From positions 1 to 51,915 of the forward strand of contig JANNQW010000167.1 of the NCBI GenBank assembly GCA_031400955.1: 51,915 nucleotides of DNA, in the 5' to 3' direction. The DNA comes from Verrucomicrobiota bacterium. GTDB taxonomy: Bacteria; Verrucomicrobiota; Verrucomicrobiia; Verrucomicrobiales; Verrucomicrobiaceae. Shown here one piece after another: positions 28,243 through 49,313 of this stretch (within the stretch, counting starts at the first letter, position 1; each line of letters starts with the position of its first letter). The position numbers and the translations under genes were made by a program. The notes beneath the pieces were generated by a model. That model ran no database searches. It was not told the DNA's origin and worked only from the letters and a program-made list of their open reading frames with translations.

Positions 28243-28255
28243 TGGAAAGCTTGGC

Positions 28256-31264: not shown

Positions 31265-31320
31265 ACCATTTGAGAGGATCAACCTAAATACGGAGCTGAT
31301 AGCGAATAGTCGATACCACG

Positions 31321-31574
31321 AGCGGTTTAAATAAATTCGTGGCCGTTTCCACGATGCTATTTTCTTTTTGTGCGAGAAATTTTGGAGCGCACGCGCCCTC
31401 GCTTGCCGCCCTTCGCGCCCTCGCGAAGGGTCAAACGCAAACTTTTGATGCCATATCGTCAGGGGACACCGCAGGAAGTCCGCGAAGGCGCAGACTTCTG
31501 CACGCGGGGCGCGTGCGCTCCAAGAACTCCAGCACGCACACCATCTGGCCACGAATTTATTTAAACTGCTCTAA
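31321..31574 (+). repeat. MITE-like structured repeat, copy 2 (~254 bp, carries a 22-nt internal duplication)
   Basis: Same orientation as copy 1. Terminal inverted repeats are agcggtttaaataaattcgtggcc / ggccacgaatttatttaaactgct. There is an extra ttgccgcccttcgcgccctcgc relative to copy 1. Its 3' end overlaps the TAG stop of the TPR-like gene. Confidence 0.8.
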
Positions 31575-33376: not shown

Positions 33377-33387
33377 TTATGCGCAGG

Positions 33388-35049
33388 TTATGGTTTGGCC
33401 GGATTGGATTCCTGAAAATCCAGGACAAGTCTGAAGCCGACATCCGGCAGCGCCTTGCCAGCTTCGACACGTTCCTCGGAATTGATTCGAAGCTTGCTGC
33501 CTTCAGTGGTTTCCCAGGAACCGCCGCAATAAATCCGATTGCTGCCAAGATCACCGCCGACATTGGCGCACCATTCAGCTGCATTCCCCGCAAGTTCATA
33601 AAAACCGAGCGAATTGGGCGGCAGAGACTTCACTGCCATTCTTTCCGTCCGGGCACCTTCAGGAAGCGGTCTGACGTCGATATTGATCAGTTTTGGCGAC
33701 GGCGGCCACTCGGAGCCCCATGGATAAGCCCGCAGTTTCCCCGCCGGATCATTTTCTGAAGCTGCCAGCATCCACTCGGCCTTTAATGGCAGCCGGTAGG
33801 CCGCACTTTGAGGAATCGTCCCGCGCGTCTGCTCCCGCTGAGTCAACCACCGGCAAAAGAGAACTGCTTCGGCCCACGAAACCCCGACGCAGGGATGTTC
33901 CAAGTCCGATCTAAATTGAGAGGCGAGCGTCGATGGATCCTCTGACGCCATCACGAAAGCCTTGTAATCCATCGCCCGAACTTCGTGTTCTCCCAGAAGA
34001 ACTTTGCTTCCCGGAAGCGGCAGCAGTTTTAAGCCAAGAGAATTGACATAGGCCCGCCCTTCCGCAGCCATCGATGCGTCCCCCTTGTCCGGGGCGCCAG
34101 TCTGCGTGCCCTGGAGACGCCGCTCGATCATGGCCCGCTTCACTTCATCTTCGGAAATCACCGGCTTGCTCATGAGAAGATCCCGTTTTTCTTTCCTTTC
34201 AGCGGTCATATTACTTTCAAACTCGGACTTCTTATCGCTATCCGTCAGAACACAGCGGAAGCCGATCCCGGGCACCCGGGTCTCCGCTGCGACAGACAAT
34301 TGGTAAGCCGGATTCATGCATTCCTTGCGCCAATACATCCAGGAGGCACCACGCAGCGTTCCCGATAAAATATCGCCCGCCACCGGATCGAACGTCCACT
34401 CCCATGCATTCCCGCCGAGATCATAAATGCCATCCGCCGTGGATTTGAACCGTCCAACCGGTGCCGTGAATGCGAATCCGTCGTCTTCAGCACCCTCAAT
34501 CCGTGCCCTGTTATAGTTTCCCGCGCCCAAGGGTGGCGGCCAATCGGTTCCCCAAAGAAACGGCTGCGGGGCCGTGGCGGAAACTTGCGTCGCCTTCCTG
34601 CCCGAATCCTTCAGACCGGCCGCCGCGTCCCACTCCGCGTTGGTGGGAAGACGATAACTTTGCGTGGCCTTGAGAAGCCCCGATTCGCGCTCCTTCTCCG
34701 TCAGCCAGTCGCAGAAGTCCATGGCCTCCTCCAGCGTCACATTCACAACCGGATGCGAATCGTCCTGGGAAAAACCCGGACGGTGCACCCATTTCACGCC
34801 AGCGGAAACGACGAGAGCGTTCCAATCCGACACCCGGGTCTCCCAGATGCAGAATCGAACATCCGTGCCTTTGACACTGCGAAACACCATGCCCAGGCCG
34901 TTGCGAAACTCTTCGGCCGCAGCCCCGTTCGGAGTCGCGCTGAGAAGAACGGCTCCGACCATCCCGCAAACAATCCTCCGCCAGAAAAAACCAGAGCGAT
35001 GACTAAGGTGGAGGAGGTGCATGATCATTTGCTGGGTCAAGCCAATCAA
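33388..35049 (-). CDS. Exported protein with two tandem FGE-sulfatase (SUMF1/formylglycine-generating-enzyme-like) domains
   Basis: Domain 1 has HPVVNVTLEEAMDFCDWL…YRLPTNAEWDAAAG…GNAWEWTFD…LRGASWMY. Domain 2 has HPCVGVSWAEAVLFCRWL…YRLPLKAEWMLAAS…GNAAEWCAN…YCGGSWET. N-terminal hydrophobic anchor/signal. Start is TTG 35049 or ATG 35028/35022. Confidence 0.8.
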   Translation of the reverse strand: MIGLTQQMIMHLLHLSHRSGFFWRRIVCGMVGAVLLSATPNGAAAEEFRNGLGMVFRSVKGTDVRFCIWETRVSDWNALVVSAGVKWVHRPGFSQDDSHPVVNVTLEEAMDFCDWLTEKERESGLLKATQSYRLPTNAEWDAAAGLKDSGRKATQVSATAPQPFLWGTDWPPPLGAGNYNRARIEGAEDDGFAFTAPVGRFKSTADGIYDLGGNAWEWTFDPVAGDILSGTLRGASWMYWRKECMNPAYQLSVAAETRVPGIGFRCVLTDSDKKSEFESNMTAERKEKRDLLMSKPVISEDEVKRAMIERRLQGTQTGAPDKGDASMAAEGRAYVNSLGLKLLPLPGSKVLLGEHEVRAMDYKAFVMASEDPSTLASQFRSDLEHPCVGVSWAEAVLFCRWLTQREQTRGTIPQSAAYRLPLKAEWMLAASENDPAGKLRAYPWGSEWPPSPKLINIDVRPLPEGARTERMAVKSLPPNSLGFYELAGNAAEWCANVGGDLGSNRIYCGGSWETTEGSKLRINSEERVEAGKALPDVGFRLVLDFQESNPAKP

Positions 35050-35087
35050 CAGGCGAATCTAGTTTATTAAACTGAAAAAGGAAAATA

Positions 35088-35207: not shown

Positions 35208-35235
35208 TAAAACCCGCACCCTGCGTTTTTCAGGA

Positions 35236-38200
35236 TCAGAGTTTCTTCCGCCGCCGTCTCTCTTCTTCATCATCGTCGTCACTGCCGCCATATCCCAGCA
35301 CTTCGACCGTGATGATCGACGGAGTTTCAACGGGCGTCTGAGCTGTTGCTGGGGTGCTTTGTTTCATGGCATCAGCCGCCGCACTGGTGCTGGCACCGGC
35401 GGCGTTGCCGGCTGCCGTCAGTCCACCGATGTTTGGTGCGCTGACCACGGGCGCGGTGGGAGTGCCCACGCTGCTGCCGCCGACGGCAATGTTGCTGGCG
35501 TTGAGCACGGCGGTGGCGGCGATCGTGAGGTTTCCAGTGGCACGGATGCCCGCATCACCGGCGTCAACGACACCCACGGGAGCGATCAAATCGACATCGC
35601 CGGGAGGAACATTTTTCACCGTCGCCAGCACGCCAATGCCGCCCCCGGTCGAGAGACCTGCAAGGTCGGTGGCGATATCCGCGCTCTGAGGATCGATCAA
35701 GACACGAGTGGGCGGTGCGGAGGCCACAGTCTTCGCTGAAGCGCCCGCAGCAATGTCGCCGGCAGACGACCAGATCACGAGGTTGCCGCCACGCAGGGTG
35801 AAAATGCGGGACACACCCACGTCCACGCTGTCGTTGGTGAAGATGTTGATGCCGCCGCCATACTCGGTGACGATACCAGGCGGCGGATCAGGATTGCCCA
35901 CGATGCTGGCCCCGAGACTGAGTCCGCCGCCCGGGGTGAGGATGTTGATGCTGCCTCCGTTCTTGGTGCGGATGTCGCGAGAGAAAGTAGTGATGTCGCC
36001 TTGCGAGGACTCTGGGAAAAGGGCTTCGATTGCCGCGAATCCCGCAGCATAACCGCCCGCAGTGGCGGAATCGCGGCCTGCATCCCGCAACGCGAGGTAG
36101 AATAGCTCCAGCGCAATGGCATTGCGCTGCTCCAGAGGAAGCAGTTCAAGTTCGGCGACGCTGGTGACGGTGCTCCCGATCCCGGTGGCCGTCGTGGCAT
36201 ATTCTGTAAAATACCGCGCTCCGTCCGGCCCGCTGAGGATCTGATCGATGAACGTGTCGAAATCGAGAGTGCTGTTGGCAAGTCCGAACGATTTGCCCAT
36301 GCCAGCCCCGACGATCAGGCTGGCGCCTTCAAAGGGAAGATAGGGGTTTCGCGCATTGCCAATGCTGGTGATGCCGGCGCCGGTTCCGTCGCCAACTGAA
36401 GCGGCCGCGCCCAGAGACAGATCCCGGCCCGCCAGAACCTCGAGCGTGCCGGGGCCGCTGATCTGGATATCTCCCGCCAACGCCGCCGGCTGTAACGCAT
36501 TCAGCAGATTCCCCGTGCTGGTGGACTGGATGCGTGCCGGAGTGCTGGGATTGTATACGATGATATCCCGGCCTGCCGCAACGATGCTAATGTCGGCCTC
36601 GCTTGTATTCTGGATATACAACGCAATATCGGCGATGTCGTTCCCCGCGAAGACCTGCGCCCGTTTCCCGGAATAGAGCGTGAGGGTGGAGACATCCCCG
36701 CCGAGGGCGTAAAGGCGCACGGGGTTAGAATCGCCGGTATGCAGGACGCCCGGGGCGTGGCGCGTTTGCTTGAACTGGACGACGGCCGCGGCTCCGGTGG
36801 TGGCGCCAGTCTCGACAAAACGATCATTGAACGTGTTCAGAAACGTGTTTTGAGTGGTCCGCATGCCCCCGGCAGACGGGGTCGCAAACAAATTCTGATA
36901 GCCGAAGGGCTGGCTGATGCTGTAGATCGCGGCGGGATCGGTGTCGGACAGGTTGAACGTGGATGCCGACCACAGCCGGGTGGAAACTCCGCTGATGGTG
37001 ACGGTTCCCGTGGGCTGGAGTCCGCCGATCGCTCCTGCGGCCGAAAGTTCGAGGGTTCCGGTCGGCGAAGGGAAAAGCTGGAAATTGCCGACCGTGTTGA
37101 TGTCGCCGGAGAACGCCGTTGCCTTGAGGGTCGGCGCCATCAGATCCATAACCGTCCGGAACGGAGTCACATTGGTTTCCGAAAGTCGGAGCCAGGGTTG
37201 GGAGTTGGACGCGGAAACTTCGCCGGATGTCACCAGCAGCAGCTCCCTGCGAAACCACTCGAAGAGAACGGGCGAGGACGCGCTTCGAGCGGTGGACGGC
37301 AATGTGACCGCCTTGCGCAGGTCGATGTCACCTCCCAGCGAAGTGATTTCGACAGCGCTCGACGGAGAATAGGTGGAGAAGTAAGTCTTATACCAGTAGC
37401 TATTGTTGTAACCTTGTGGGAGGAGGAACGGATTGGCCACGGGGCCAAGCAGCACATCACCGCGCGCGCCCACCGAGAAGTTGCTTTTGCCGACGAAGAG
37501 AGTGGTGGGCAGCCAGGTTTCGGGGGCAAAAATTTCTGGATTGGTCAGGCTGAAGATGATGCCGCGCGAGGGGGAGCGGGTGCGATTGGTGGTGATCGCG
37601 CCTCCGGCGAAGAGGGTGCCGGAACCCCGTTCTACATAGTAGACACCCCCGTCAATATTCCTCCCTGCTTGCACCACAAGGTCGCCGCCTCCGAGCTCCA
37701 CTAGGGAGGCGGCATTGGGTGCGATGGCGGCTCCGCCTACGGTCTTGCCGGGCATGCGCGCATTGGTGGGCACAACTGCGTCGACGTTGCTCACATCTCT
37801 GCCGGCGACGACGGTGACGTCGCCCCCGCCCAAGGCTCCGACACCTTCAAAGAAGTTCGTGAAGTCAACCCACCACGTGGTCGAGGCAATGTCGGAGGGC
37901 ACGTCGCCGATAAACTGATATTTGGAGGGCGCAAAGAGCCCGGTTGTCGAGTCCACGGCACCGCGGCGATAGAGCCAGTTAACTGGCATCTCCCGGGAGG
38001 AATCGGCGATGAGGGAGCCTCCGGTGGCGGTGGTGACGTTGCGAGTGTAGTGCGCGACATCGGCTCCGGCGTTGAGGGTCACGTTGCCGCCCGCCAAGGT
38101 GTATTGCACGGCGGACGGCGGATTCTGCTGAACCGCGCCCAGAGTGCCGGTGAAGGTGCCGTTCATGTTCGGGACCGGCGTGTCGAAGGTGCCTCCCATA

Positions 38201-41200
38201 TTAGGATCGGTCACCTGAACGCCCGCCGTGAAGATGGTGGCGAATTGATTGAGCAGTTGCACGTCGCCAGCGGTGGCGATGTCGATGTCCCCGGTTCCGG
38301 TGCGGATGGCTTGATACTTGTAGGTGGTGGCTGTTGGCAGACCGATGGCCGCGCTGGTCAAAGCGTTGGCCGCACCGGTCGCCGTGTTCGCCCCTCCGTT
38401 CTTGCCCAGCCTGAGCGAACCCGGCCTGTTCTCCGGAAGCGCGGCGAGTTCAGCCGTCGTCAACGATCTCACGCGATGGAAGTCCACCGCTGTGGGATCG
38501 AATCCTGCTGCGAACCGGTAGCTCCAGGACTGGGCATTGAGCGGCACCAGCGTATTGTTCGCCAGAAGGCCGGAGGTGTAAATCGAAGTCGTGAAGCCGT
38601 CGCTGATGGTGTTGAACAGGTTCAGATTCCCCGATGCCCGAAGTGTCAGCACGCCGGGAACAAACCTGTCGCCGAAGCGGAAACGCTGGCCTGCCGTGGT
38701 GTTGCCCAGATTCCAGTCGCTGGTGGAGTTGCTGGTCGTTGTTCCCAAGGTTAAGTCGCCGAGGCGGTTGATGATCTCCGCGCCGGGAACGATGACGAGA
38801 GAAGAAGACAAACCGGCGTTGCCACCCAGAATGCGGTTGAACATGGTGTTGTAGCCGGCCGCCGGCGTCCCGGCGACACCGATCAACTGGTTGCCGTTGG
38901 TGCGGACGTTGTTCTGCACGGTCGTGGTGATCGTGGCTCCGGCGGCGTTGGAAATGTCGAAGAGCCAGTAGCCCTCGACCGTGATGCTGGAGCCGCCGGT
39001 GATCGTGCTGTCCAGAGCGCTGACACGGATGTCGGTGCTGTTGGTGAACAAGGTGCCGTTCTGCGGAGCGCGGAGATGCAGCGTGCCCGAGAGCTGACCC
39101 AGGGCCACATTACCGGGAGTGGTCACGGAAAGGTCGATGCTCGAGGCCGGCAGGAGGCCGGCTGCGCCAAGCAGGTTGACGAAACCCGTGGGGTCAATGA
39201 CCCCGTTGCGCTGCGAGCCGGCCTCGAGGAAGACGGCGCCGCCCTTGCCCGCATTACTAAAATTCTGGCCCTTTACAGTCAGGACCGAACCGGCATTCAG
39301 AGTCACGCTGCCGAATGCTTTGAGGTCGATGGTGCCACCAGTGTCGCCCGTGGCGTCGATGGTGCCCGTGACGAGAATCGAACCGGCGTCCACAGACAAG
39401 TTGAAAATATGTGCCTTGGAGGTTCCGTCCACAGTCACCAGAGTATCCAGACGGTCACGTATGCTGCGGGATTGTTCGAAACCCACGATGGAGGAAGTGA
39501 GGCTGCTGATCAGTCCCTGATTGGGAACCGTGCCGGGCAGTCTTCCGACATCCAAGGAGAGGATGCCGCTGGTGCCGGCGTCGGCGACACCGAGCAACTG
39601 GCCGGCCACGCTTAGCAAGCTCGTCGGGGAGTTGATGTTGACCCGGCCTGCATCACCTCCTCCCGTGGCAGCGGAAACGTTCACCCTGGCACCCGCGAGG
39701 ATCGATACGGAGCCGGCATCCGCCGTGAGCGTGATTTCCCCGGCATCGGTATATTTTACGACATCGAAGAAAGTCTGCTGCGTTCCGCCCACATCCAGAT
39801 TGCCACCCACCGTGAGAGCGCCCGAGGTGGCTCGAACGTTCAGCAATCCGCTCGGAAGCAATACATCGGAATTCACCGTGACCGCAGTGCCTCGAATAGT
39901 GAGACTGCCACCCAGACCTCCCGCGACGCTTGCTGAACCGCCCGTGATCGAAAGAATGTTCACCGGACCTCCTTCCGCAATCAGCGACTGGGTTGCGGAA
40001 CGCGCTGTCGTCAGCAACGGGGCACGGATTGTCAGGGCCTGCGGCACGGTCAAGCCTCCAGCTCCGCTCGCCAGCACCCCGGAGGACGCGTTGATCTCGA
40101 CAGTGTTGAACTGGTCGATGCGGACAGGATTGGCACCGAGTTGAAAGGTTCCGGCATTGAATTGCAGGGTTCCATCGGGCGGCGAGGCGGCAGCCAGGAC
40201 GGGCACGTTGGCGGAGTTGTCGATGGTGATGCTGCTGGCGTTGAATTGCAGCATGGACCCAAGCTGGTTGAAACCGCGAATCGTGCTAGTGTGCAGCGCC
40301 AGACTCCCTTGGGCATCGAACGAGCCGGTGCCATACAAGTCGATGGAGGAGTAGCTCAACAAGGAAAGCGAATCGGCGGCGGCAAGATACCCCAATGCTC
40401 CGCCAGCCAGCACCAGACCCACAGTCGGCTGCAAGGCTCCCGGATTGGTGAATTGCATGCTGATCTGACCGCTGTTCAGATTGATGGCCCCAGCCTCAAG
40501 CACTGCGGTGGAAGCCAGGGTGGATGCATAGGTGGAGTCGAGGGTCAGGCTGGCTCCGCGCAATATTGCGCCAGCACCAACGACCAGATTCGGTTGGGTC
40601 GAGGATGCCACCGCCGTTCGCGAGGTTTGGGCGGCGGGATCCCCGCTCACCCGGACGAGCGCGCCGTCCCCGATCGTGATCGGGATGGCCCCGCCCGTGC
40701 CGCTGGCGAAGGTAATGGTGCCGCCACTATTGAGGGTCACCGAGCTCCCGGATGCGACAGTGGTGGAAACTCCCGCGGTGAGCGTGGAGGTGGCGCCGTT
40801 GGCCGCCGTGATGACCCCGCCCACGGTGGAGGTAATACGATCCGTGCCGGGCGTGCCGCTGGGGAAATTGATGGGTGTGCCACCCCGCTGGAAGGTGAGA
40901 CTCTGCCCCACGGTGGTCAGCTCCAAGGCCCCGGTGACCACCAGCGTATCCGCGGACACGATGGTGCCCGACTGCTCGATGACGGATCCTGGCGCGAGGG
41001 TGATGCCGCGGTTGGCGGCGAGAATGATCTCCGGTGCCGACAGGGCGGTGCCGGCGTTGTCCACTGTGATATTACCTGCGCGAACTGTCACCGCAGTGAA
41101 AGTGTCACCAAAGGTTCGCCTGCCGCCAATAAGCAGGCTCTCCGCCCCAAAACTGCTCAGCTTGCTAGAACTCAAGGCGACGACTCCTAGTCCGCCGCCT

Positions 41201-44200
41201 GTGCCGGATTCGTTGATGATAAAGTCCAGGGGCGCGCTAATATCAACGAGGCCTCCCCTGCCGCCAAAAGCACCCGAAGCCAGGACATCACCGTCTATCT
41301 GCATTGCCGTAGTGCTCTGGAAGAGGAGATACCCGCCGTCGAGCGGAAGGCGGGGCACCGTGGCACCCACCGCCTCGGCGCTGGCTCTTAAGAAAGTGTT
41401 GGCGGAAAAGGTTTCATACGTCGCCCGCTGCAGGAATGTGGCTGCCGGTGCCACCTCAAATCGGGAGAACAGCGGGGAGAGCCTGCGACCGCTGTTCAAG
41501 TCATTGAATTGGTAGCCCGCGACGTAGCTCGCGCCGTCGGGATTAGTAAAAGTGCCGGTGGGCGACCCGCTTTGAGGCGTGACTAGGAAAGCACCGGGCA
41601 TCAGGGCGTAACGCGCCGGCAAGAGTGTGTAAACCCCGGCCTTCAGCCCAGGACTGGCGTTCAAGAAAACGCGATCACCCACCGACAGGGAATCGTTCAC
41701 ATAACCGGGCTCGCCCGCCGCCAGGTTGTCGCTGTCCGCAGAGTCGTTAAAAGGCGCGAATGGGGCAAAGTTCGATTGATATTTCGGAAGAACGGCAAAC
41801 GCCGTAGACGACGCCAAGATGTCTGTGGAACCACCGTTCCCTTCGATAAAGCGATAGGCGAACAAGTCACCACCACCGCTGACGTCGAGGAGCGAGCCAG
41901 TCTCCATGACGAGGTTCTGGGCGGCGAGGTTGATGGCTTTGGATGTCACTCCCCCCGCAGTGATGTCAATTCCTGCGGGATCAATCCAGGAATTGCCGTC
42001 CGCGCTGAAGCCGAACGGGATGAGCAATTCCGCGCCGGTGAGGCCGTCCACTGCGGAGACGGAGGTGATGCTCCCCGAGAGGAGGCTGAGCTTTTCAGCG
42101 ACCGGAACCGGCTGACCGCTGATGGGGGCCGTGGGCGCAGTGCCGGTGCCGTCCCATCCGAGATTGATGCCGCCGATCGGCGCCCTGAGCACGCCGCCCT
42201 GAGTGATATTCGAAGCATAAATGCTCAGGACTCCCCCGGCGGAGAGCGGAGTGCCTTGCGCGCCCATGCTGCTAATGGTGACACTGCCTTTTTGAGCGCC
42301 AGCGCCATTCGTGTAATCGTAAGCGGTGATTGTGAAACGCGAAGCCGTCGTGGGATAAATCTGTCCAGCCTGCAAATACAAATCCCCGGCGATTTCCAGC
42401 GCGCCGTTCCCACGGATGTCACCGCTGGATCGAAGATCGGCGCGACCGATGCCCTGGAGCGAAAGGGTGCCTATGTCCAGCAGGCCGGCGTTGACATTAA
42501 GCACTCCGGTTCCGTAGGTCGGGGCGAAAAGATACTCGGAGGTCGCGCCTGCGGCATCGGTTTTGGTGAAGAGGATGCTTTCCTGGCTAGATTGCAGCGG
42601 CACTTGGAAGGGCATTCCCAGCCTGACATAAGGCGCAGTCAGGTTCACGATGGAATCGGCCTGGATGATGCCGCCGGATGCGATCTTGAGATACCCACGC
42701 GCGTCGAGGGAAACTGGTCCGGTGAACTTCACATTGCCGCCCAGCGTCAGGGAGTCGAAGCCTCCCTGCGTGAAGGTGCTGGCGGCGAAGTATCCCATGG
42801 CGGGAACCGCGGAGCCGCCAGAGAACAACACTGCCTGGCCGATGGCTGTCTCATCCGAGCCGAAAGGTACCGGAATGGTCAGTCCGCTTTGCCGCACCTC
42901 GAGATTGATGTCGGCGGAAGTTCTTGGGGTGCCTATCTGGTTGAATTTCCCCGACGAAACTGACAGGCTGCCTCCGACTGCGGTCGGCCCGCCGGCATGG
43001 CCTCGCAGGGTCGCATCAAGAAAAAGCAACTGGCCGCCTTTGAAGCTGATGTTTCCGCCGTCGCTGTCGTGATCAACCGGCAACGACAGCGACGCATAAA
43101 GCGCCGCCGTGAGTCCGCTGCTGGGCGGCACCATTGGGAGGCTGAGCGGACCGACGCCGAGAGCGTTGAGATTCAGATACGACGGATGAACATCCAGAAC
43201 ATCTGAAGTGCCGGATGCGTCGAGCACGGCGCCGGCGGCCGCGACGATGTTGCCGGACACGGAGATGTCACCTCCGGGCAGAACGTAACCGGTGCGCCTG
43301 CCAAACCTGTCCGGCAGCAGGATCGTGACTCCCTTGGTTGAAAGCAGGCTGCCCGGTGCCAGATACACCGTGGTAAATGCATTGGTCGGAAGCGGATCGG
43401 AGGTGGGATAGGAGTCGGCCCCCTTGACGGTGATGGCGCCTCCCGGTGCGATGACGGAACCGAACACCGCCACTGTGCCACCGGTGAGCGATACGGTGGC
43501 TAGGGGATCGGTCCTGATAAGTGCTCCCCGGCCTAGAACCAGATCGCCCTGCGAGAGCAGGATTGTCGAGTCCAAAGTATCCTTCAACGCGGGTGCGTTC
43601 AGGCTGATGCTGACAGGTGACCTGAGGCCCTCTGGCTTGAGCAGGGTGATAAGCGAGGGTGCGTCCGTTTCGAAGCCATAGAGGACCGCCAGATAATTTT
43701 CCGCGACCGGCTCGATTTTTGTTTCCGGAGCCACGTAAACGGAAGGGAGGATGTTGCCGTCCTCGTCGTTGAGGCCGCCCACGCCGGTCAGGGTATAGCT
43801 CGTGAAGCCTCCCTTCCGGAAGAATTCAGACTGCAGCAGAAGCGATTTTTCGTGCAAGGCGGAGCCGCCGATTTGGATCAGCGGCGCCTGCAATGTGAGC
43901 GCGCCTCCCGTCGCACCCGAGTAGCCCCGAAGGATGCCAGCTAGGGTGAGTGTTCCGCCAGAATCCGGTCCGCCTGCGGCATCCGTTCTGGCAATCACGG
44001 AGGCTAGGCCGGGATCCTGACCCGCCTTGATGACAATGCTTCCGCCATCACCATAGCTGCGACTGCCGGCGGTGCTGACAACCACCCCACCCGACACATC
44101 GACAACACTCCCGGCGGCAAGATTGACCGTAAAGGCATTAATGGACACATCCCCCCCGTGCGTGACTATCGGAAGACTCAATGGATCCGGCGCGCTCAGC

Positions 44201-46950
44201 CGGTCATCCACGACTAATCCTGCAGCGCTGATCCGGGCTCCTGACCCCAAGGTGACTCCGCCCCGGTCTTCATTGGGTGGCGGCGTAGGGAACAAACCCA
44301 CATTCGCTAGCAAGTTGGCCGTCACTTCCGGGGATATATTGTAGGAAAGGAGTGAGACCGTGCCGCCCGGAAACACGATGGAACCTTCAACCGTGATGTT
44401 CGAACCGGTGATGTCCAGCTTCCCTTGGGGCGGGCCTGCCAGCGTCACGCTCTTGGGCACCAGCACTTCCCCATCGGGGTTCTTCACAGTGAGGCTGGCA
44501 AAGCCACTGGTTGTGTAAAGTGAGGGCCGGAGAAAGACCCGGGCCAGCCTCTCCGGCGGCAGAGGAAGCGGATTCCCACTGCCGTCCAGACTGAAAGAAG
44601 GCACCGGCGGAAGGGAGGAGTCTTCCTGGAAAACTATCGACGGCGGTGTTGGCGAAACGTAGGGATAGGCGGGTGCTTCCCGTTGCACCAGCTGGCTCTG
44701 GAAGGTGAGAGTCAGGTCGCTTCCCTCCGGAAGATCGTCGCGCTGGCGAGGACCGGCGACGGTGTGACCCCAGAAGTCGCCATCCAACGCCATGCCAGCC
44801 GCTCCAATCGCCAGACTGCCGCCGTCTGCCCCGTGAACGTAGGGTTGCTCGTAATGCTCGCCGGACATCCAGGGGATCCGGAAGGTTCGGGAAATGCCCC
44901 AGCGCGGGTGGGATTCAGTGAACAAGCCGGTGAAAATTCCTTGGTAAAGCCGGTTCGGCGTGGCAGAGGCGATCTCTATCAGATGCCCCGCATACCAAAC
45001 CCGGGTGGTTGTGACGGTGCCGCCTCCATAGTTGACGAAGCCGCCGGAGACATCCACGACCGAACCGGGTTGAAGCACCACCGAGCCCCCGGCATTCAGG
45101 CTGACCGAGCCCCCGCCAACTGTCAGAAGTCCGACGCTGCGCTCGATGATGTTCAGATACCCCGACAGATCCGCTAAAGGCGTTCCATACCAGGTGCGGC
45201 CGTTGTAGACCCCTGTCTTGCGCAGGTCCACGGTGATGGTGGGATTGTTGCCATCTCCCGGCCGGAATATGCTAGTGCGCTGGAGCGGCGAGTCTTTCAC
45301 CTCCGCGCCCCGGAGTTCAACCGCTAGGATGTATTGGGATAGCGGAGCCGCGACATCGGTCGAGCCGGCGACGTTGATCATCGAATTTTGATCGAGGAAA
45401 ATCTGGCCGCCGGAATGAACGAAGGTGTTCGATGCGCTGGACGAGCCGCTGATGACAAAATCCCAGACACCCGCCCGGACGTCCACGACCGCATTGGGAG
45501 CGAGGATTGACGATCCCGGGGCCATGTGAACCACCCGGCCCGTGACATTCACCTGGGACCTGAGTGCGAGGGCCGTTCCAATCCGTGTTTCAGTGCTGTC
45601 GTATTCCGGCAGAATGCGCGTCACACTACCGGGACCGAACTCCACCAACCCCGTCGAGCGGTGCAGGAACGGGGCGACATTGGGACGCTGCACCGCATCG
45701 TAAGCGGTGTTGCTCAGTGCGTCGTAGCTTGCGGACAGGTCAATGCGTCCATTGACGGAAACGGAGGTGGTGCTGTTGATCGCGGCGAGCTGATTGACAG
45801 TCTTGCCAGTCATGATGACGCTGGCCCTGGGCGCGTCGATCAGGCCGGTATTGGTGACGGTGCCGGCGTATTCCGGTAAAAGGGAAGCCGGATCAAGCAC
45901 GGCGCCAACGAAAGCATCTAGGCCGCGGAGCGATGGGTCAGTGGAGCGATGGGCGTCGAAACCAACCTGGAGGCCGGCGGCCAGGATGGTCTGGCCATCC
46001 GGCGTGGAAATGGTGCCGGCGTTGATGACATTGGCACCGGCAAGAACAATGCGGCCGCCGACGCTCGCCTCCGAGGTCGGGGCCGTGAGCTGGGCACCCG
46101 CCCGCACAACGACATCACCGATCTTGCCGCTGGCCGGAAGCGCGGGCGGAGTGAAGGCGGGCGTTGGACCCTTGGAACCAGCCGGGATGGCCAGTGCACT
46201 GAAGAGGAACTGCGCGTCGGGATTGTTGAGCAGACCTCGGGTGATCAGGTTCTCGTTCAGCGGCAGGGACGAGGCCACCAGCGTGTGGGTGTTGACCTGG
46301 CTGCTGCCCCCGAAGATGATGCCGTTTTGGTTGATGACATAGACTTGGCCGGCCGCAGTGATGGAACCGAGAATTTGCGAAGGCAGTCCGCTGGGATCCT
46401 CGACCTTGTTGAAGGCGATCCATTTACCAACATCCGCTCCACCCGCGCTCTGGTCGAAGTCGAGCGTCGTGTTGCGCCCGATGTTGAATGTTCTCCACCT
46501 AAGCAAGGCCTCCTGTGTCGTCTGTTTCACCTTCACGGTGTTGCCCGACTGGACCGGGGCGGCGGCTCCGGTGGCGCTGATGAAATGCAGACCGCCGGTG
46601 GCGAGGCCGTCGGGCACGTTCGGCAGCGGCTGGCCCGGCGTGCCCAGGTTGCTGGCACCGGCGGCGATGGCCCGCGCTGCCGCCTGGGCGTTCTGGACGG
46701 CGTTCATTGCCTGCGCCGTGCGCGCGAGGGCGTCACGCGCGTTAATGCGTGCGCGATCCGAATCCGCAGCCGTCGTGCCGAAAGATGCGCGAGGGCGTGC
46801 CGTATTGGCGGGCGCACCTCCTCGCAGAATGTCTCCGCTCCGGCCCGCCACAGGCATGAAGCAGAACATCGCGGCAGCCAGAATCGTCGTCGCCCGGTGG
46901 TGGCGCAGTAAACCCAAAACTGGCTGCGGGCGGGAATTCAGATGCGGCAT
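35236..46950 (-). CDS. Giant TpsA exoprotein (filamentous-haemagglutinin family, ~3,904 aa)
   Basis: Signal peptide, then a TPS/haemagg_act domain (QEALLRWRTFNIGRNTTLDFDQ…PSQILGSITAAGQVYVINQNGIIFGG at ~46240-46530), then ~3,500 aa of G/S/T/A/V/N-rich beta-helix-like sequence. The start was moved to the ATG at 46950 (MPHLNSRPQ…), because the 47274 start overlaps the upstream gene. Confidence 0.9.
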   Translation of the reverse strand: MPHLNSRPQPVLGLLRHHRATTILAAAMFCFMPVAGRSGDILRGGAPANTARPRASFGTTAADSDRARINARDALARTAQAMNAVQNAQAAARAIAAGASNLGTPGQPLPNVPDGLATGGLHFISATGAAAPVQSGNTVKVKQTTQEALLRWRTFNIGRNTTLDFDQSAGGADVGKWIAFNKVEDPSGLPSQILGSITAAGQVYVINQNGIIFGGSSQVNTHTLVASSLPLNENLITRGLLNNPDAQFLFSALAIPAGSKGPTPAFTPPALPASGKIGDVVVRAGAQLTAPTSEASVGGRIVLAGANVINAGTISTPDGQTILAAGLQVGFDAHRSTDPSLRGLDAFVGAVLDPASLLPEYAGTVTNTGLIDAPRASVIMTGKTVNQLAAINSTTSVSVNGRIDLSASYDALSNTAYDAVQRPNVAPFLHRSTGLVEFGPGSVTRILPEYDSTETRIGTALALRSQVNVTGRVVHMAPGSSILAPNAVVDVRAGVWDFVISGSSSASNTFVHSGGQIFLDQNSMINVAGSTDVAAPLSQYILAVELRGAEVKDSPLQRTSIFRPGDGNNPTITVDLRKTGVYNGRTWYGTPLADLSGYLNIIERSVGLLTVGGGSVSLNAGGSVVLQPGSVVDVSGGFVNYGGGTVTTTRVWYAGHLIEIASATPNRLYQGIFTGLFTESHPRWGISRTFRIPWMSGEHYEQPYVHGADGGSLAIGAAGMALDGDFWGHTVAGPRQRDDLPEGSDLTLTFQSQLVQREAPAYPYVSPTPPSIVFQEDSSLPPVPSFSLDGSGNPLPLPPERLARVFLRPSLYTTSGFASLTVKNPDGEVLVPKSVTLAGPPQGKLDITGSNITVEGSIVFPGGTVSLLSYNISPEVTANLLANVGLFPTPPPNEDRGGVTLGSGARISAAGLVVDDRLSAPDPLSLPIVTHGGDVSINAFTVNLAAGSVVDVSGGVVVSTAGSRSYGDGGSIVIKAGQDPGLASVIARTDAAGGPDSGGTLTLAGILRGYSGATGGALTLQAPLIQIGGSALHEKSLLLQSEFFRKGGFTSYTLTGVGGLNDEDGNILPSVYVAPETKIEPVAENYLAVLYGFETDAPSLITLLKPEGLRSPVSISLNAPALKDTLDSTILLSQGDLVLGRGALIRTDPLATVSLTGGTVAVFGSVIAPGGAITVKGADSYPTSDPLPTNAFTTVYLAPGSLLSTKGVTILLPDRFGRRTGYVLPGGDISVSGNIVAAAGAVLDASGTSDVLDVHPSYLNLNALGVGPLSLPMVPPSSGLTAALYASLSLPVDHDSDGGNISFKGGQLLFLDATLRGHAGGPTAVGGSLSVSSGKFNQIGTPRTSADINLEVRQSGLTIPVPFGSDETAIGQAVLFSGGSAVPAMGYFAASTFTQGGFDSLTLGGNVKFTGPVSLDARGYLKIASGGIIQADSIVNLTAPYVRLGMPFQVPLQSSQESILFTKTDAAGATSEYLFAPTYGTGVLNVNAGLLDIGTLSLQGIGRADLRSSGDIRGNGALEIAGDLYLQAGQIYPTTASRFTITAYDYTNGAGAQKGSVTISSMGAQGTPLSAGGVLSIYASNITQGGVLRAPIGGINLGWDGTGTAPTAPISGQPVPVAEKLSLLSGSITSVSAVDGLTGAELLIPFGFSADGNSWIDPAGIDITAGGVTSKAINLAAQNLVMETGSLLDVSGGGDLFAYRFIEGNGGSTDILASSTAFAVLPKYQSNFAPFAPFNDSADSDNLAAGEPGYVNDSLSVGDRVFLNASPGLKAGVYTLLPARYALMPGAFLVTPQSGSPTGTFTNPDGASYVAGYQFNDLNSGRRLSPLFSRFEVAPAATFLQRATYETFSANTFLRASAEAVGATVPRLPLDGGYLLFQSTTAMQIDGDVLASGAFGGRGGLVDISAPLDFIINESGTGGGLGVVALSSSKLSSFGAESLLIGGRRTFGDTFTAVTVRAGNITVDNAGTALSAPEIILAANRGITLAPGSVIEQSGTIVSADTLVVTGALELTTVGQSLTFQRGGTPINFPSGTPGTDRITSTVGGVITAANGATSTLTAGVSTTVASGSSVTLNSGGTITFASGTGGAIPITIGDGALVRVSGDPAAQTSRTAVASSTQPNLVVGAGAILRGASLTLDSTYASTLASTAVLEAGAINLNSGQISMQFTNPGALQPTVGLVLAGGALGYLAAADSLSLLSYSSIDLYGTGSFDAQGSLALHTSTIRGFNQLGSMLQFNASSITIDNSANVPVLAAASPPDGTLQFNAGTFQLGANPVRIDQFNTVEINASSGVLASGAGGLTVPQALTIRAPLLTTARSATQSLIAEGGPVNILSITGGSASVAGGLGGSLTIRGTAVTVNSDVLLPSGLLNVRATSGALTVGGNLDVGGTQQTFFDVVKYTDAGEITLTADAGSVSILAGARVNVSAATGGGDAGRVNINSPTSLLSVAGQLLGVADAGTSGILSLDVGRLPGTVPNQGLISSLTSSIVGFEQSRSIRDRLDTLVTVDGTSKAHIFNLSVDAGSILVTGTIDATGDTGGTIDLKAFGSVTLNAGSVLTVKGQNFSNAGKGGAVFLEAGSQRNGVIDPTGFVNLLGAAGLLPASSIDLSVTTPGNVALGQLSGTLHLRAPQNGTLFTNSTDIRVSALDSTITGGSSITVEGYWLFDISNAAGATITTTVQNNVRTNGNQLIGVAGTPAAGYNTMFNRILGGNAGLSSSLVIVPGAEIINRLGDLTLGTTTSNSTSDWNLGNTTAGQRFRFGDRFVPGVLTLRASGNLNLFNTISDGFTTSIYTSGLLANNTLVPLNAQSWSYRFAAGFDPTAVDFHRVRSLTTAELAALPENRPGSLRLGKNGGANTATGAANALTSAAIGLPTATTYKYQAIRTGTGDIDIATAGDVQLLNQFATIFTAGVQVTDPNMGGTFDTPVPNMNGTFTGTLGAVQQNPPSAVQYTLAGGNVTLNAGADVAHYTRNVTTATGGSLIADSSREMPVNWLYRRGAVDSTTGLFAPSKYQFIGDVPSDIASTTWWVDFTNFFEGVGALGGGDVTVVAGRDVSNVDAVVPTNARMPGKTVGGAAIAPNAASLVELGGGDLVVQAGRNIDGGVYYVERGSGTLFAGGAITTNRTRSPSRGIIFSLTNPEIFAPETWLPTTLFVGKSNFSVGARGDVLLGPVANPFLLPQGYNNSYWYKTYFSTYSPSSAVEITSLGGDIDLRKAVTLPSTARSASSPVLFEWFRRELLLVTSGEVSASNSQPWLRLSETNVTPFRTVMDLMAPTLKATAFSGDINTVGNFQLFPSPTGTLELSAAGAIGGLQPTGTVTISGVSTRLWSASTFNLSDTDPAAIYSISQPFGYQNLFATPSAGGMRTTQNTFLNTFNDRFVETGATTGAAAVVQFKQTRHAPGVLHTGDSNPVRLYALGGDVSTLTLYSGKRAQVFAGNDIADIALYIQNTSEADISIVAAGRDIIVYNPSTPARIQSTSTGNLLNALQPAALAGDIQISGPGTLEVLAGRDLSLGAAASVGDGTGAGITSIGNARNPYLPFEGASLIVGAGMGKSFGLANSTLDFDTFIDQILSGPDGARYFTEYATTATGIGSTVTSVAELELLPLEQRNAIALELFYLALRDAGRDSATAGGYAAGFAAIEALFPESSQGDITTFSRDIRTKNGGSINILTPGGGLSLGASIVGNPDPPPGIVTEYGGGINIFTNDSVDVGVSRIFTLRGGNLVIWSSAGDIAAGASAKTVASAPPTRVLIDPQSADIATDLAGLSTGGGIGVLATVKNVPPGDVDLIAPVGVVDAGDAGIRATGNLTIAATAVLNASNIAVGGSSVGTPTAPVVSAPNIGGLTAAGNAAGASTSAAADAMKQSTPATAQTPVETPSIITVEVLGYGGSDDDDEEERRRRKKL

Positions 46951-47005
46951 GGATTGGCAAAAATGGCAGCGATATGTTTGCTTTCTCAGAGGGCAGGCGG
47001 CGTCT

Positions 47006-47935
47006 TCAATTCTTGATTTCTTTTGCCGCCTGAGCCAGCCCATCCTCGTAGGCCTTGATGGATGCGGCCCGGACCAGATCATTGAAAGCGGCATAACCAT
47101 ACCGGGCTCGGAAAATCTGGTCGGCCAACCACTGCGCGTCCCTCCATTTCTTTTCATAAGCAGGGTCGGCAGGATCTTGGTTGGGCCCGCCAATGTCCTT
47201 AACGAATTGACTCTGCATTTCTTGAATGGATGCAATCTGCTCCGGAGTCGCTTGAACCACTCCCGGTTCAGCATACCGGGGACCGGTCCCGCCTGTTGGG
47301 CTGCCGGGGCTTTGGCCGTTTCCGTCGGATACCGGCTTGAATTTCAACCCCGCCATGATCGCCGGATAACGGACGGGCGGAGCGGCGCTGCCCGGATCGG
47401 TTTCCGCAGCTCCGCGCTCCCGCCCCTCGGACGGTGCATTCCGCATCAGGAGATTTGCGTTGTCGGCAATATCTTTGTCCAGCTTGCGCAGTTGCGAAGC
47501 TAGGTAATCACGACGGGTCACCCCTGACGGCGGCCGCCACGAGGTCGATCGCATGATCGTCGTTTCAAGTTCTTTGCGCCGATCTGCGGCATTGGCCAGC
47601 AGTTCGCCACGGATGATATCAAGAATCGTGGTCTCCGGACAGCCGATCTGTCGCAGACGTGAGATGAATGCTGAGTAATCCTCGGACTCCAGGCTGCTCC
47701 ACTGGAACGGCTTCGGCTCTGCTGAACGCAAATCTGGCTTTGGTTGGTCATTTCTGGCCGCCATGGGTGCAACAACCGCTGGGGCCGGGTCGGCGGCAGG
47801 CGGCACGAGACGGGGGCCGTGCAACAGCAGTCCTGCCACCATCGCGCCTGCATTGAGCATGAGTGAAATCGCCAGCAGAACAGAGGCTGGACGAAGTTTA
47901 TTTTTGGCTGTGTGCGAGGGATTCATAATCGGCAT
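47006..47935 (-). CDS. Membrane-anchored hypothetical protein
   Basis: N-terminal TM (ASVLLAISLMLNAGAMVAGLLL), a Pro/Ala-rich linker and a soluble region with FQWSSLESEDYSAFISRLRQIGCPETTILDII. No family recognised. It ends 56 nt upstream of the tpsA start. Confidence 0.6.
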   Translation of the reverse strand: MPIMNPSHTAKNKLRPASVLLAISLMLNAGAMVAGLLLHGPRLVPPAADPAPAVVAPMAARNDQPKPDLRSAEPKPFQWSSLESEDYSAFISRLRQIGCPETTILDIIRGELLANAADRRKELETTIMRSTSWRPPSGVTRRDYLASQLRKLDKDIADNANLLMRNAPSEGRERGAAETDPGSAAPPVRYPAIMAGLKFKPVSDGNGQSPGSPTGGTGPRYAEPGVVQATPEQIASIQEMQSQFVKDIGGPNQDPADPAYEKKWRDAQWLADQIFRARYGYAAFNDLVRAASIKAYEDGLAQAAKEIKN

Positions 47936-48023: not shown

Positions 48024-49313
48024 TCAATATAGCGGCGTGATGTTACCGCCGTCGGCAAGACGCTCGACCTGCATCAGGGACTTCTTCAAGCCCGAGGAAC
48101 CTGGGAAGTCGTCAAGATTGGTTGCGAGACCGGCCGCGAGAAGCACAGCGCCGGCAGGAGCATCATCGCGGTGCATCATGTGAAGGTAACCCCAAAGGGA
48201 ATATCTGCCTTCATAGACGGCGGTAGCCGAGTAGGTGACACCGTTGTATTGGCACTCCACTGCGCCATTGGTCAGGGCGGTAGCGCCGTCGCTGAGGCCG
48301 ATGTAACCAAGCACATAGCAAGGGGTCTTTCCGCCCACGGTGAGACCGCTGGTGTGGGCAGCCACATAACCGGCCACCGAACTGCCGCTGGAGGCACCGT
48401 TGTTGCCGATAGCGGTGGCAGTCGCGGCATTTTGGCCGCAACGAACACTGCTGATGGCACCTGTCGAGTTCACGTCCATCGTGAACTGGGTGGTGCTGTT
48501 CACCACGGACACCGTGGCGCCCACGGGGATATTGGTGCCGGTGATGGGCTGGCCTACGATCAGCGTTGTGCCGAGGACGGTATGATCGACGACCGCGGTG
48601 CCCGCAGTATGCACAATCCCCGAGATGCTCTGGTTGGAGCCCGTGGTGTTCGGGGTGTATTGCGTCACGCTGGAGAACGCACCGACGCCGACTTCAGCCA
48701 TGGTAGTGATGCGGGTGCCGGAGCCGTTGTCGCGACCGGAGCCAATCACACCTTTGCCGTGGTCAGCATTGAGGCCCGTGAAGAGCGCCAGGGGCTGAAC
48801 ATTGCCTTGGAACAGCACTTGTGCGAGCTGCGGAGTGACGTTGGTGATCGGCGATCCTTCGCTCGTCATGAACTTGAAGGGCAAGACGACGGTCGTAGCG
48901 TCTGTCAAGGTTGGCGACTGGAAGTTGGTCGAACTCTGGAACACGTCCGAAAACGCGATGTCAGCCACGTGATTCAGTGCCGTGGGGGTGCCGTAGGTGC
49001 CGCCGTCGATCTCGGCCATGAAGACCACGTTCGCTTGGGAGGTCACGCTTTGCACGCCTGCTGCGGAACCCGACCAAGAGCAATAGACGTTGTAAGTGTC
49101 CGAGTTATAGGTGCCGCCCGTGAAGTTGGCCTTGTTGGCGCTGTTGAGGGTGGCATTGTCCTTAGTGACGGTTTCACCGGTCAACATTTGCGCGAGCGAA
49201 TCAAAGACCGACGCCCGGCCGGCTGTGGAGCCGGTGATATAGACGTCGTAGGTGGCAGCTTGGACGGCCGAGGCGAGACCAAGCGTGAGGATGAGGAGAT
49301 GACGGAGTTTCAT
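48024..49313 (-). CDS. Secreted protein with PstS-like type-2 periplasmic-binding-protein fold (PBP_like_2-type), ligand unknown
   Basis: Signal peptide MKLRHLLILTLGLASAVQA. The order of motifs is YITGSTAG…, WSGSAAGVQSV, DIAFSDV, NVTPQLAQVLFQG and GSGRDNGSGTRITT, which mirrors the GST/GSG/…/SGT pattern of phosphate-binding-protein-like domains. Confidence 0.5.
   Translation of the reverse strand: MKLRHLLILTLGLASAVQAATYDVYITGSTAGRASVFDSLAQMLTGETVTKDNATLNSANKANFTGGTYNSDTYNVYCSWSGSAAGVQSVTSQANVVFMAEIDGGTYGTPTALNHVADIAFSDVFQSSTNFQSPTLTDATTVVLPFKFMTSEGSPITNVTPQLAQVLFQGNVQPLALFTGLNADHGKGVIGSGRDNGSGTRITTMAEVGVGAFSSVTQYTPNTTGSNQSISGIVHTAGTAVVDHTVLGTTLIVGQPITGTNIPVGATVSVVNSTTQFTMDVNSTGAISSVRCGQNAATATAIGNNGASSGSSVAGYVAAHTSGLTVGGKTPCYVLGYIGLSDGATALTNGAVECQYNGVTYSATAVYEGRYSLWGYLHMMHRDDAPAGAVLLAAGLATNLDDFPGSSGLKKSLMQVERLADGGNITPLY

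Follow-up and report, generated by a model that had tools for sequence, protein, structure and literature searches.

The window, the whole 51,915-nucleotide stretch of a Verrucomicrobiota contig (JANNQW010000167.1, GCA_031400955.1), carries on its reverse strand a gene for a giant exoprotein, TpsA, together with the genes of an outer-membrane transporter (TpsB), an ExbB–ExbD–TonB system, a porin and several further exported or membrane proteins. As a whole, the locus is best explained, with a probability of roughly 80%, by TpsA being the exoprotein of a two-partner secretion (TPS, type Vb) system of the PdtA/PdtB type, which would operate by the mechanism proposed below. The assignment of TpsA to the PdtA type follows from a direct match of its C-terminal region to PdtA of Pseudomonas aeruginosa and from a collinear gene cassette. 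Which domains and partner genes are present, how conservation is distributed and that a toxin or enzyme domain is lacking are plain observations. An earlier note on this DNA, made from its letters, had drawn attention to the gene, and its claims are taken up with the results that bear on them.

The TpsA exoprotein and its family

The open reading frame 35236..47274 (−), which encodes 4,012 residues from its first ATG (47274), is by a wide margin the longest in the window, in keeping with the earlier note. A start at 46950 yields a protein of 3,904 residues (35236..46950, −), and an identical 3,904-residue protein (P0126) stands in a public protein library; hence, an independent gene call picked the same start. 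The following features lie along the gene.

35236..46950 (−): TpsA exoprotein gene, 3,904 residues, assigned to the PdtA type; stop codon at 35236–35238; based on the open reading frame list, the translation, P0126 and full-length collinearity with proteobacterial homologues
46843..46950 (−): putative Sec-type signal peptide, approximately residues 1–36, with a basic n-region and a hydrophobic stretch, TILAAAMFCFMPVAG, that holds the only cysteine; hydropathy maximum at residues 19–36
46816..46836 (−): probable start of the mature protein, the conserved GDILRGG (residues 39–45), directly after the signal peptide; 9 of the 10 bounded full-length relatives from Verrucomicrobiota have it
45976..46557 (−): TPS secretion domain, residues 132–325 (PF05860, TIGR01901), with NQNG at residues 207–210 (46321–46332)
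41251..42453 (−): example tile of the passenger, residues 1500–1900, a beta-rich solenoid with loop insertions in the AlphaFold2 (AF2) model (mostly strands; predicted local distance difference test, pLDDT, 77; predicted template-modelling score, pTM, 0.79); above-average conservation
40636..40938 (−): private insertion of approximately 100 residues (about 2005–2105), a gap in all 13 aligned full-length homologues
36585 to ~35460 (−): C-terminal module of approximately 375 residues, predicted by AF2 as beta-helix, helical insert and beta-helix; includes DUF3739
35455..35790 (−): DUF3739 (PF12545), residues 3721–3832, the most conserved stretch; 104–108 bits against a cut-off of 27
35323..35463 (−): low-complexity linker of alanine, serine, threonine and proline, predicted to be disordered (AF2 pLDDT 33–41); poorly conserved columns, approximately 45–60 residues across relatives
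35284..35322 (−): isolated strand motif PSIITVEVLGYGG, residues 3877–3889, sharply conserved behind the disordered linker
35239..35283 (−): charged tail SDDDDEEERRRRKKL, in which an acidic patch common to nearly all relatives precedes a basic block that is optional; weak helix in AF2

The C-terminal region links TpsA directly to a known protein. The last 449 residues match the P. aeruginosa PdtA fragment P0292 with 34% identity (BLASTP, E=1e-50), through to PSVITVQVLGFG; the comparison with P. aeruginosa PdtA covers C-terminal fragments carrying DUF3739. Both PF12545 and this comparison with the fragments and locus of P. aeruginosa uphold the earlier suggestion that the module is the DUF3739 of PdtA-type proteins. 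In an alignment of 28 C-termini, the module contains 63 invariant columns and the strand follows the consensus PS-[ILV]-x-[ST]-V-[EQ]-V-[LI]-G-[YF]-G. The strand is present in 73 of 79 GTDB relatives, in 113 of 120 and 120 of 146 library matches and in 105 of 120 proteobacterial matches. It is letter-identical (PSIITVEVLGYGG) in the Methylosinus plasmid protein, and the P. aeruginosa PdtA version is PSVITVQVLGFG. Literature searches found no paper describing this motif.

The translation of 35236–35289 gives the C-terminal end PSIITVEVLGYGGSDDDDEEERRRRKKL with the tail GGSDDDDEEERRRRKKL, in which an acidic block is followed by a basic block, as in the earlier note. The two blocks differ in their conservation. 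Over the 12 residues that follow the strand, the net charge is negative in 384 of 411 strand-bearing relatives, and a run of at least three basic residues after the acidic part occurs in 40 of 73 GTDB, 49 of 113 and 24 of 120 library, and 5 of 105 proteobacterial strand-bearing relatives; overall, the basic block is found in just ~15–50% of relatives. Where both are present, the acidic run precedes the basic run (100 of 100 proteins). The tail after GYG is 3 to 65 residues long, and several proteins stop directly at GYG(G). The GYGGG-acidic-RRR arrangement is also found in Alphaproteobacteria (P0339, P0373, P0383), ahead of a C-terminal extension. The expected conservation of the tail thus holds for the strand and the acidic patch, and in only part of the family for the basic block. 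Across the aligned C-termini, the conserved element is the strand PS-I-I-T-V-E-V-L-G-Y-G-G with its acidic patch, and RRRRKKL appears as an optional, order-constrained addition. Proteobacterial PdtA-type proteins continue past the strand into a second V-x-V-[LV]-G-x-G motif and close with LTxEE...L. In some relatives (P0048, P0056, P0083), a PDZ domain lies approximately 135–215 residues before DUF3739, roughly at the site of the helical insert of the window TpsA. PDZ domains bind C-terminal peptides, and their occurrence in some relatives deserves attention given the conserved C-terminal strand.

Over its whole length, TpsA aligns collinearly with 13 full-length homologues, ten of them verrucomicrobial and three proteobacterial. 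With the insertion block and the first 100 residues set aside, the identity per 100-residue block is 36–78% to the verrucomicrobial and 10–43% to the proteobacterial proteins. Conservation peaks among relatives in the TPS domain (62–70% identity) and in DUF3739 (78% mean identity). The private insertion is rich in glycine, threonine and serine and makes up most of the surplus length of TpsA. The structure models cover two tiles, residues 1500–1900 and 3456–3904, and AF2 predicts a beta-solenoid for both (pLDDT 77 and 73), in agreement with the beta-helical passenger for which the earlier note had proposed such a check. A Foldseek search of the residue 1500–1900 model against PDB gives nothing significant, the best weak matches being the TPS beta-helices of HMW1 and HxuA; nor is any match significant for the C-terminal module. 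Across the two models, the best weak matches are TpsA secretion domains and other beta-helices, so that neither the C-terminal module nor the central tile gives a sign of an enzyme or toxin fold. Ten overlapping 430-residue tiles contain no further Pfam domain at E<=1, toxin and pretoxin domains included; a motif search of TpsA finds no VENN, ELYN or related motif; and FhaB-type haemagglutinin repeats or prodomain have no Pfam match in the full-length or tiled scans.

At the N-terminus, hydropathy and alignment place a putative leader with a basic n-region and a hydrophobic core, with two candidate cleavage positions (between VAG and RS, or between RSG and D). In an alignment of ten full-length relatives, the hydrophobic stretch closes with AxA or similar right before the conserved GDILRGG, and the order in ten bounded full-length relatives is leader, GDILRGG, alanine-rich helix and TPS domain with INQNGIIFGG. 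The TPS domain itself, predicted by the earlier reading, is confirmed above the curated cut-offs: PF05860 reaches 65.5–66.1 bits (cut-off 33.5) when the N-terminal 430–500 residues are scanned alone, and TIGR01901 (adhes_NPXG) reaches 62.3 bits (cut-off 29.1) on full-length TpsA. A full-length Pfam scan reports DUF3739 only and overlooks PF05860; hence, TpsA was rescanned in tiles. In VINQNGIIFGG, both asparagines and the glycine are retained and proline is replaced by glutamine. A motif search finds NPNG and NPNL nowhere in the 3,904 residues, and an HMW1-like FN[KR]V is present where FHA-type proteins would have NPNL as first motif. Among 86 full-length representatives, the x of NxNG is glutamine in 42, proline in 20, arginine in 9 and alanine in 4. 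The NQNG singled out earlier is therefore real, but as the commonest form it is hardly a notable variant.

The translation of the 4,012-residue frame has cysteines at residues 20, 94, 103, 106 and 138, the last of which is Cys30 of the 3,904-residue protein, its sole cysteine, situated in the hydrophobic core of the putative signal peptide. The count made by eye is thus matched by computation. In the other 26 open reading frames of the window, cysteine averages 0.97%, so that approximately 38 cysteines would be expected in mature TpsA, and the probability of none is ~4e-17. In 79 species-level relatives, 43 cysteines occur in 254,204 residues, that is 0.017% (0.015–0.017% over relatives, >250,000 residues); 59 of 86 full-length representatives have none after residue 60, and 81 of 86 have at most two. 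Cysteine depletion fits translocation of an unfolded chain, as had been argued, but it is generic to the family and not special to the TpsA of the window. An HMW1/HxuA-type disulfide-bonded C-terminal loop is ruled out, the mature protein having no cysteine in its translation. Proteobacterial homologues (P0267–P0386; L081, L083) have few cysteines, in closely spaced pairs such as C-x6-C.

The family is large. The C-terminal 449 residues recover 561 relatives in a 90%-clustered library, and a profile search gives 3,147 clusters at 50% identity, with E<=1e-30 for 2,009. A scan of one genome per species yields 532 matches, and the best 80 of these, which form the set of TpsA-centred loci counted below (n=80), are all Verrucomicrobiota (Prosthecobacter, Brevifollis, Luteolibacter, Chthoniobacterales and Terrimicrobiaceae) and are 53–70% identical over the C-terminal 449 residues. 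Among the relatives carrying the locus are the cultured Prosthecobacter fluviatilis and Brevifollis gellanilyticus. Matches of the TpsA N-terminal 500 residues by tblastn at the 5' ends of many loci were disregarded, because they probably reflect internal similarity among passenger segments and not true N-termini. Judged over these sequences, the cysteine-free passenger, the NQNG and the tail are traits of the family, and none is peculiar to the window gene.

The gene cluster and its counterparts

On either side of TpsA, the window contains the following genes.

28256..29941 (−): TpsB outer-membrane transporter, PdtB-like (ShlB, POTRA_2); in related loci always immediately upstream of ExbB
26371..28350 (−): ExbB with a periplasmic DUF2341 and LamG extension (Pfam); probable start near 28242, 623-residue gene call in L084
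25961..26368 (−): ExbD (PF02472)
25207..25932 (−): TonB with a proline-rich spacer and a basic C-terminal domain (TonB_2, tonB_Cterm)
23232..25187 (−): Porin_5 outer-membrane protein, 651 residues, PA0696-like (PF16930 at 638 bits)
22456..23229 (−): secreted coiled-coil protein, 257 residues, PA0697-like; conserved in 18 loci
47006..47935 (−): up1, a membrane-anchored protein; between up2 and TpsB in related loci, a conserved member of the verrucomicrobial cluster
48024..49313 (−): up2, a secreted PstS-like protein (phosphate-binding-protein fold), 429 residues; profile match to PstS in PDB
49392..50216 (−): up3, a PEP-CTERM protein; open reading frame to 50348, likely start ATG 50216; TIGR02595 above cut-off, C-terminal VPEP...RRRR; co-occurs with up2
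30467..35049 (−): insert between TpsA and TpsB, consisting of a double FGE-sulfatase-domain protein (33388–35049), a TPR protein (31571–33376) and a 361-residue open reading frame (30467–31552)

A cognate TpsB, through which the earlier note had the passenger translocated, is thus encoded nearby. In the locus of P0292, the order is PdtA (DUF3739), DUF772, PdtB (POTRA_2/ShlB), ExbB (DUF2341, LamG and MotA_ExbB), ExbD, TonB (248 residues), Porin_5, a 220-residue protein, YbjN and a rotamase, which corresponds to PA0690–PA0699 with P0292 at the PA0690 position. The window is collinear with P. aeruginosa at identities of 40% (TpsB), 34% (ExbB), 49% (ExbD), 34% (TonB), 38% (Porin_5) and 30% (coiled-coil protein). 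With Methylosinus, the corresponding values are 46, 50, 62, 41, 43 and 34%. Klebsiella plasmids likewise have the cassette in this order and with these domains. The Klebsiella homologue, whose C-terminus is 78–87% identical to the Pseudomonas fragments, is collinear with the window TpsA over its whole length. In the annotated plasmid homologues of Klebsiella, Cupriavidus and Methylosinus, TpsA has approximately 4,100 residues, and the gene surroundings are of the architecture published for P. aeruginosa PA0674–PA0699 (PMC2729926, PMC7035377). To judge from these comparisons, the window protein is a PdtA-type TpsA and the locus is a verrucomicrobial counterpart of the pdtA–PA0697 region. What the locus adds is the conservation of the PdtA cassette, gene for gene, across two phyla, and the existence in Verrucomicrobiota of a ten-gene cluster with a PstS-like protein. 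Apart from Llamas 2009 and the Vre papers, literature searches on DUF3739, PA0690, pdtB/exbB2 and TPS with ExbB brought up no work on mechanism, and none that explains the TonB linkage; the exbB2-exbD2-tonB4 TonB system next to PdtA/PdtB in P. aeruginosa is described as uncharacterised (PMC7035377).

An ExbB-seeded metagenome scan finds 45 loci with the same cassette, in the canonical order PEP-CTERM, PstS-like, membrane protein, TpsB, ExbB, ExbD, TonB, Porin_5, coiled-coil and TpsA. In every metagenome locus with room, TpsB stands directly upstream of ExbB, and TpsA follows the coiled-coil gene in 12 of the 12 with room. The window shows a permuted order, with TpsA and the FGE, TPR and 361-residue genes between the membrane protein and TpsB. 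The up3–up2–up1 trio (47006–50348, −), usually directly upstream of TpsB in verrucomicrobial relatives, is here parted from it by TpsA and the three lineage-specific genes. These three are absent from the canonical order and common to just one of the 80 TpsA-centred loci, that of the closest relative (L001), and have the look of an insertion made recently between TpsA and TpsB. In 16 of the 80 loci, TpsA is followed by a TPR gene of distant similarity (23–29% identity). The FGE and TPR proteins, proposed earlier as partners of the tail, and the 361-residue product are excluded as general partners, since their genes are shared with one of 80 loci whereas the strand occurs in approximately 95% of relatives. 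Modification of TpsA by the FGE protein is likewise rejected: mature TpsA offers no cysteine for conversion, and the FGE gene is not conserved alongside TpsA across the family. The GC fraction at 30000–32000 is 0.53, against 0.57–0.62 elsewhere in the window. The 361-residue frame (30467–31552, −) has a GTG start, ten cysteines, an implausible N-terminal stretch and no family match; it is 46% identical to a gene of L001 only.

The 186-nucleotide, AT-rich spacer at 35050–35235, between the insert and TpsA, contains an imperfect inverted repeat of approximately 29 nucleotides, formed by TAGACAGGATTCACAAAATTAACAGAATG and the reverse complement of CAATTCTGCTTATTTTGTAAATTCTGTCTA, and a 33-residue, cysteine- and phenylalanine-rich open reading frame preceded by GGAG. 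The corresponding spacer in L001 is just ~57 nucleotides, so that the longer one looks like a small insertion. The small frame exists, but nothing suggests that it is an immunity gene, and the earlier statement that neither a VENN/pretoxin motif nor an immunity-like frame is present stands. Scans for promoters, terminators and repeats near the gene ends gave nothing informative.

In its listed extent, the ExbB frame of the cassette shares 95 nucleotides with the end of the TpsB gene, and the gene call of a near-identical contig begins 36 codons later. The ExbB extension of approximately 400 residues (DUF2341 and LamG) is constant in Verrucomicrobiota (including L132, 5065–6912), Methylosinus, Klebsiella and ExbB2 of P. 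aeruginosa. The ExbD gene is identical on a contig of the metagenome-assembled genome GCA_031413315.1. Counted from the sequence, the C-terminal domain of TonB has a net charge of approximately +6. In Porin_5, a strongly conserved stretch, VRVTYVPEVVKEQI (VRVTYVPE), at residues ~120–135 ahead of the barrel, with a conserved helix before it, could be a candidate for TonB contact. A search of TpsB and Porin_5 for conserved TonB-box-like N-termini gave nothing decisive beyond this stretch. No Pfam or NCBIfam match is found for up1. A profile of 27 up2 homologues matches PstS in PDB (4exl, E=3.8e-10; 4ecf, 1e-8) with the RxxxSGT phosphate-binding motif aligned; its conserved motifs are ITGSTAFR and GRDxDSGTR, and it is present in 35 of the 80 TpsA-centred loci and in most cassette loci.

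Farther from TpsA, a tandem M16 (insulinase-type) peptidase gene (19544–22381, −) follows the cassette; it is also in the near-identical contig L084 and was not found in other related loci. Unrelated neighbours are a ParE-type toxin gene (17506–17832, −), beside which L084 has an Unstab_antitox gene, a PIN-domain gene (51318–51755, +) and a polyphosphate kinase 2 gene (2483–3448, +) more than 30 kb from the locus.

Proposed export, tethering and rival explanations

In the proposed mechanism, TpsA would be exported by the Sec pathway and its leader cut just before GDILRGG, thereby removing the only cysteine. The POTRA domains of TpsB would hold the unfolded, cysteine-free chain through the TPS domain, by analogy with known systems (PMC5422565). 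The chain would then be threaded from N- to C-terminus through the TpsB barrel, its lack of cysteine keeping it free of periplasmic disulfides. Folding outside the cell would give a fibre of ~80 nm, estimated at ~20 residues and 0.48 nm per coil. The C-terminal module, or the strand borne by the linker, would emerge last and most likely stay at or below the outer membrane as a tether or handle, for which the periplasmic C-terminal anchors of HMW1, HxuA and FhaB offer the precedent (PMC5422565). Such a tether could do without a disulfide if the strand joined a periplasmic partner by beta-strand addition, for instance the POTRA domains or barrel of TpsB, the TonB C-terminal domain or ExbB-LamG. 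Candidate partners of the strand are the proteins that always travel with TpsA, namely TpsB, TonB, ExbB-LamG, Porin_5 and the coiled-coil protein. With its invariable linkage to TpsA, TonB remains a live candidate partner of the C-terminus, and its basic C-terminal domain would suit the acidic flank of the strand.

Several points weigh against this account. The strand is not docked onto the C-terminal module in the AF2 model, where confidence is low, and we infer the periplasmic location of the C-terminus by analogy. Antibodies in patient sera recognise a fragment from the C-terminus of PdtA (PMC2729926), a finding that is also compatible with a C-terminus that is exposed or released. In most TpsA-centred verrucomicrobial loci, the 10 kb downstream contain no cassette, since it lies upstream in the canonical order and since genomes carry several TpsA paralogues; as a result, a one-to-one pairing of TpsA and cassette stays a candidate only. 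Regulators of the VreA/VreI/VreR type (STN protein, extracytoplasmic function sigma factor, FecR) are absent from the 36 window open reading frames scanned and present in the Klebsiella and Cupriavidus loci; their absence concerns regulation, not membership of the protein family. Phosphate control of the verrucomicrobial cluster would be a conjecture from Pseudomonas, with the PstS-like gene as an indirect hint.

The same observations can be read in other ways. If the whole protein were secreted, the C-terminal module could be the distal tip of the fibre, serving adhesion, self-association or ligand capture, with the charged tail exposed and flexible. The mature C-terminal domain's distal position in FHA-type fibres (PMC5422565) and the patient antibodies speak for this, and the module, a predicted beta-helix with an insert (PDZ in some relatives), could be a binding head whose strand might add to a neighbouring molecule and polymerise the fibre. 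However, the C-terminal module and the TPS domain are the most conserved parts, as expected for contact with conserved machinery and not with variable external ligands, and the invariable linkage to a periplasm-spanning TonB/ExbBD would still need explaining. Bacterial PDZ domains, moreover, are typically periplasmic. On balance, a distal tip seems rather unlikely. The prospects are better, though somewhat short of even, for the view that the DDDDEEERRRRKKL block has no specific partner and represents low-complexity sequence tolerated at the end of the protein, which may act only as a tag for solubility or against aggregation or as a helix stabilised by its charge order, the functional element being the strand with its acidic flank. 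The occurrence of the basic run in only 40 of 73 GTDB, 24 of 120 diverse and 5 of 105 proteobacterial relatives, the varying length of the tail, down to ends at GYG(G), and the low confidence of the AF2 helix are in line with it, but the unbroken acidic-then-basic order and the GYGGG-acidic-RRR recurring in Alphaproteobacteria argue for some constraint.

An effector of contact-dependent inhibition (CDI, CdiA-like) or another polymorphic toxin, with a toxic C-terminus that current profiles fail to recognise, is extremely improbable, although TpsA is giant and the 33-residue frame lies in the spacer after its stop codon. Neither a VENN/pretoxin motif nor a toxin domain is found in the tiles, and no toxin fold is matched. 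The C-terminal 449 residues, conserved over 80 species and still recognisable in P. aeruginosa PdtA, are the opposite of a hypervariable toxin tip, and the small spacer frame is not conserved, as the short L001 spacer indicates. The earlier view that the protein is not a CDI toxin is thus well supported.

The tethered fibre allows a bolder and distinctly doubtful extension, in which the C-terminal strand and acidic patch would be a TonB-box-like handle, and a private ExbB(LamG)-ExbD-TonB motor would take hold of the fibre at its periplasmic end. The system would then be a type Vb system coupled to the proton-motive force, an ancient phosphate-scavenging surface machine common to Proteobacteria and Verrucomicrobiota, and the motor would pull, release or signal through a fibre threaded through TpsB. 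This reading draws on the isolation of the strand behind a disordered linker, the invariable TonB linkage and an apparent likeness of SIITVEV to TonB boxes such as DTITVTA.

As for function, the tethered fibre would serve energised nutrient capture, probably related to phosphate, or signalling at the cell surface, and not toxin delivery. Such a role is proposed from the private TonB motor, the large porin, the linkage to a PstS-like protein, the phosphate-starvation control in Pseudomonas and the HxuA/HxuC precedent. PdtA, PA0696 and PA0698 are induced under inorganic phosphate (Pi) limitation in P. aeruginosa (PMC9769906, PMC7035377). Genes for PBP_like_2 proteins adjoin the proteobacterial TpsAs, and PstS-fold genes recur in both phyla, which suggests that the phosphate link is ancestral and not a regulatory accident specific to Pseudomonas. 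Homology of up2 to the LapA-like PBP_like_2 genes of Proteobacteria found no support, hmmsearch and hhalign both being negative; the two are functional analogues at best.

Comparison with known systems

In the case of FhaB/FhaC of Bordetella, the window system shares a putative Sec leader, the TPS domain, the Omp85-type transporter and a predicted long beta-helical fibre, and in FhaB the C-terminal region governs from the periplasm what becomes of the fibre (PMC5422565). However, the window TpsA is without FhaB-type repeats or prodomain by Pfam, has NQNG and not NPNG, ends in DUF3739 and the strand, and is accompanied by a dedicated TonB system and a porin. In HxuA/HxuB/HxuC of Haemophilus influenzae, the TpsA protein HxuA works with a TonB-energised outer-membrane uptake protein for nutrient capture, and its C-terminus is thought to remain periplasmic (PMC5422565). 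HxuA has ~900 residues and a disulfide-loop anchor, whereas the window TpsA is cysteine-free and has roughly four times that length; HxuC belongs to the classical TonB-dependent transporters, whereas the outer-membrane partner in the window is Porin_5 and the TonB/ExbBD genes lie inside the cluster. With CdiA/CdiB, the window shares a giant TpsA with its TpsB partner, and the C-terminal part of CdiA is held back during export, but the window lacks a VENN/pretoxin boundary, a variable toxin tip and an immunity gene, and its C-terminus is conserved and not polymorphic.

PdtA/PdtB of P. aeruginosa is the counterpart proposed here. Both systems have a TpsA of ~4,000 residues, almost without cysteine, that carries a TPS domain and, towards its C-terminus, the DUF3739 module followed by a linker and the strand (PSVITVQVLGFG against PSIITVEVLGYGG). 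Both have the same downstream cassette with the same domain architectures (PA0692–PA0697, 30–49% identity), and a PstS-fold protein is tied to each locus, LapA-type PBP_like_2 in Proteobacteria and up2 in the window. The differences lie in the phylum and in the surroundings: the window is without Hxc type II secretion, YbjN and rotamase genes; its TpsA stands upstream of TpsB, parted from it by the FGE, TPR and 361-residue genes; and verrucomicrobial clusters have the extra PEP-CTERM and membrane proteins. The window tail ends after the acidic-basic block, whereas PdtA runs on for ~45 residues (V-x-V-L-G-x-G, LTxEE...L), and NQNG in the window TpsA stands against NRNG in the Klebsiella homologues closely related to PdtA. 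In P. aeruginosa, PdtA/PdtB and exbB2-exbD2-tonB4-PA0696 are induced by Pi starvation and associated with infection. What stays constant from phylum to phylum is the TPS domain, together with the DUF3739 module and the short C-terminal strand with its acidic flank, and the strand is thus a defined peptide to mutate in Pseudomonas, with TonB4, the PdtB POTRA domains, ExbB2-LamG and PA0696 as candidate partners.

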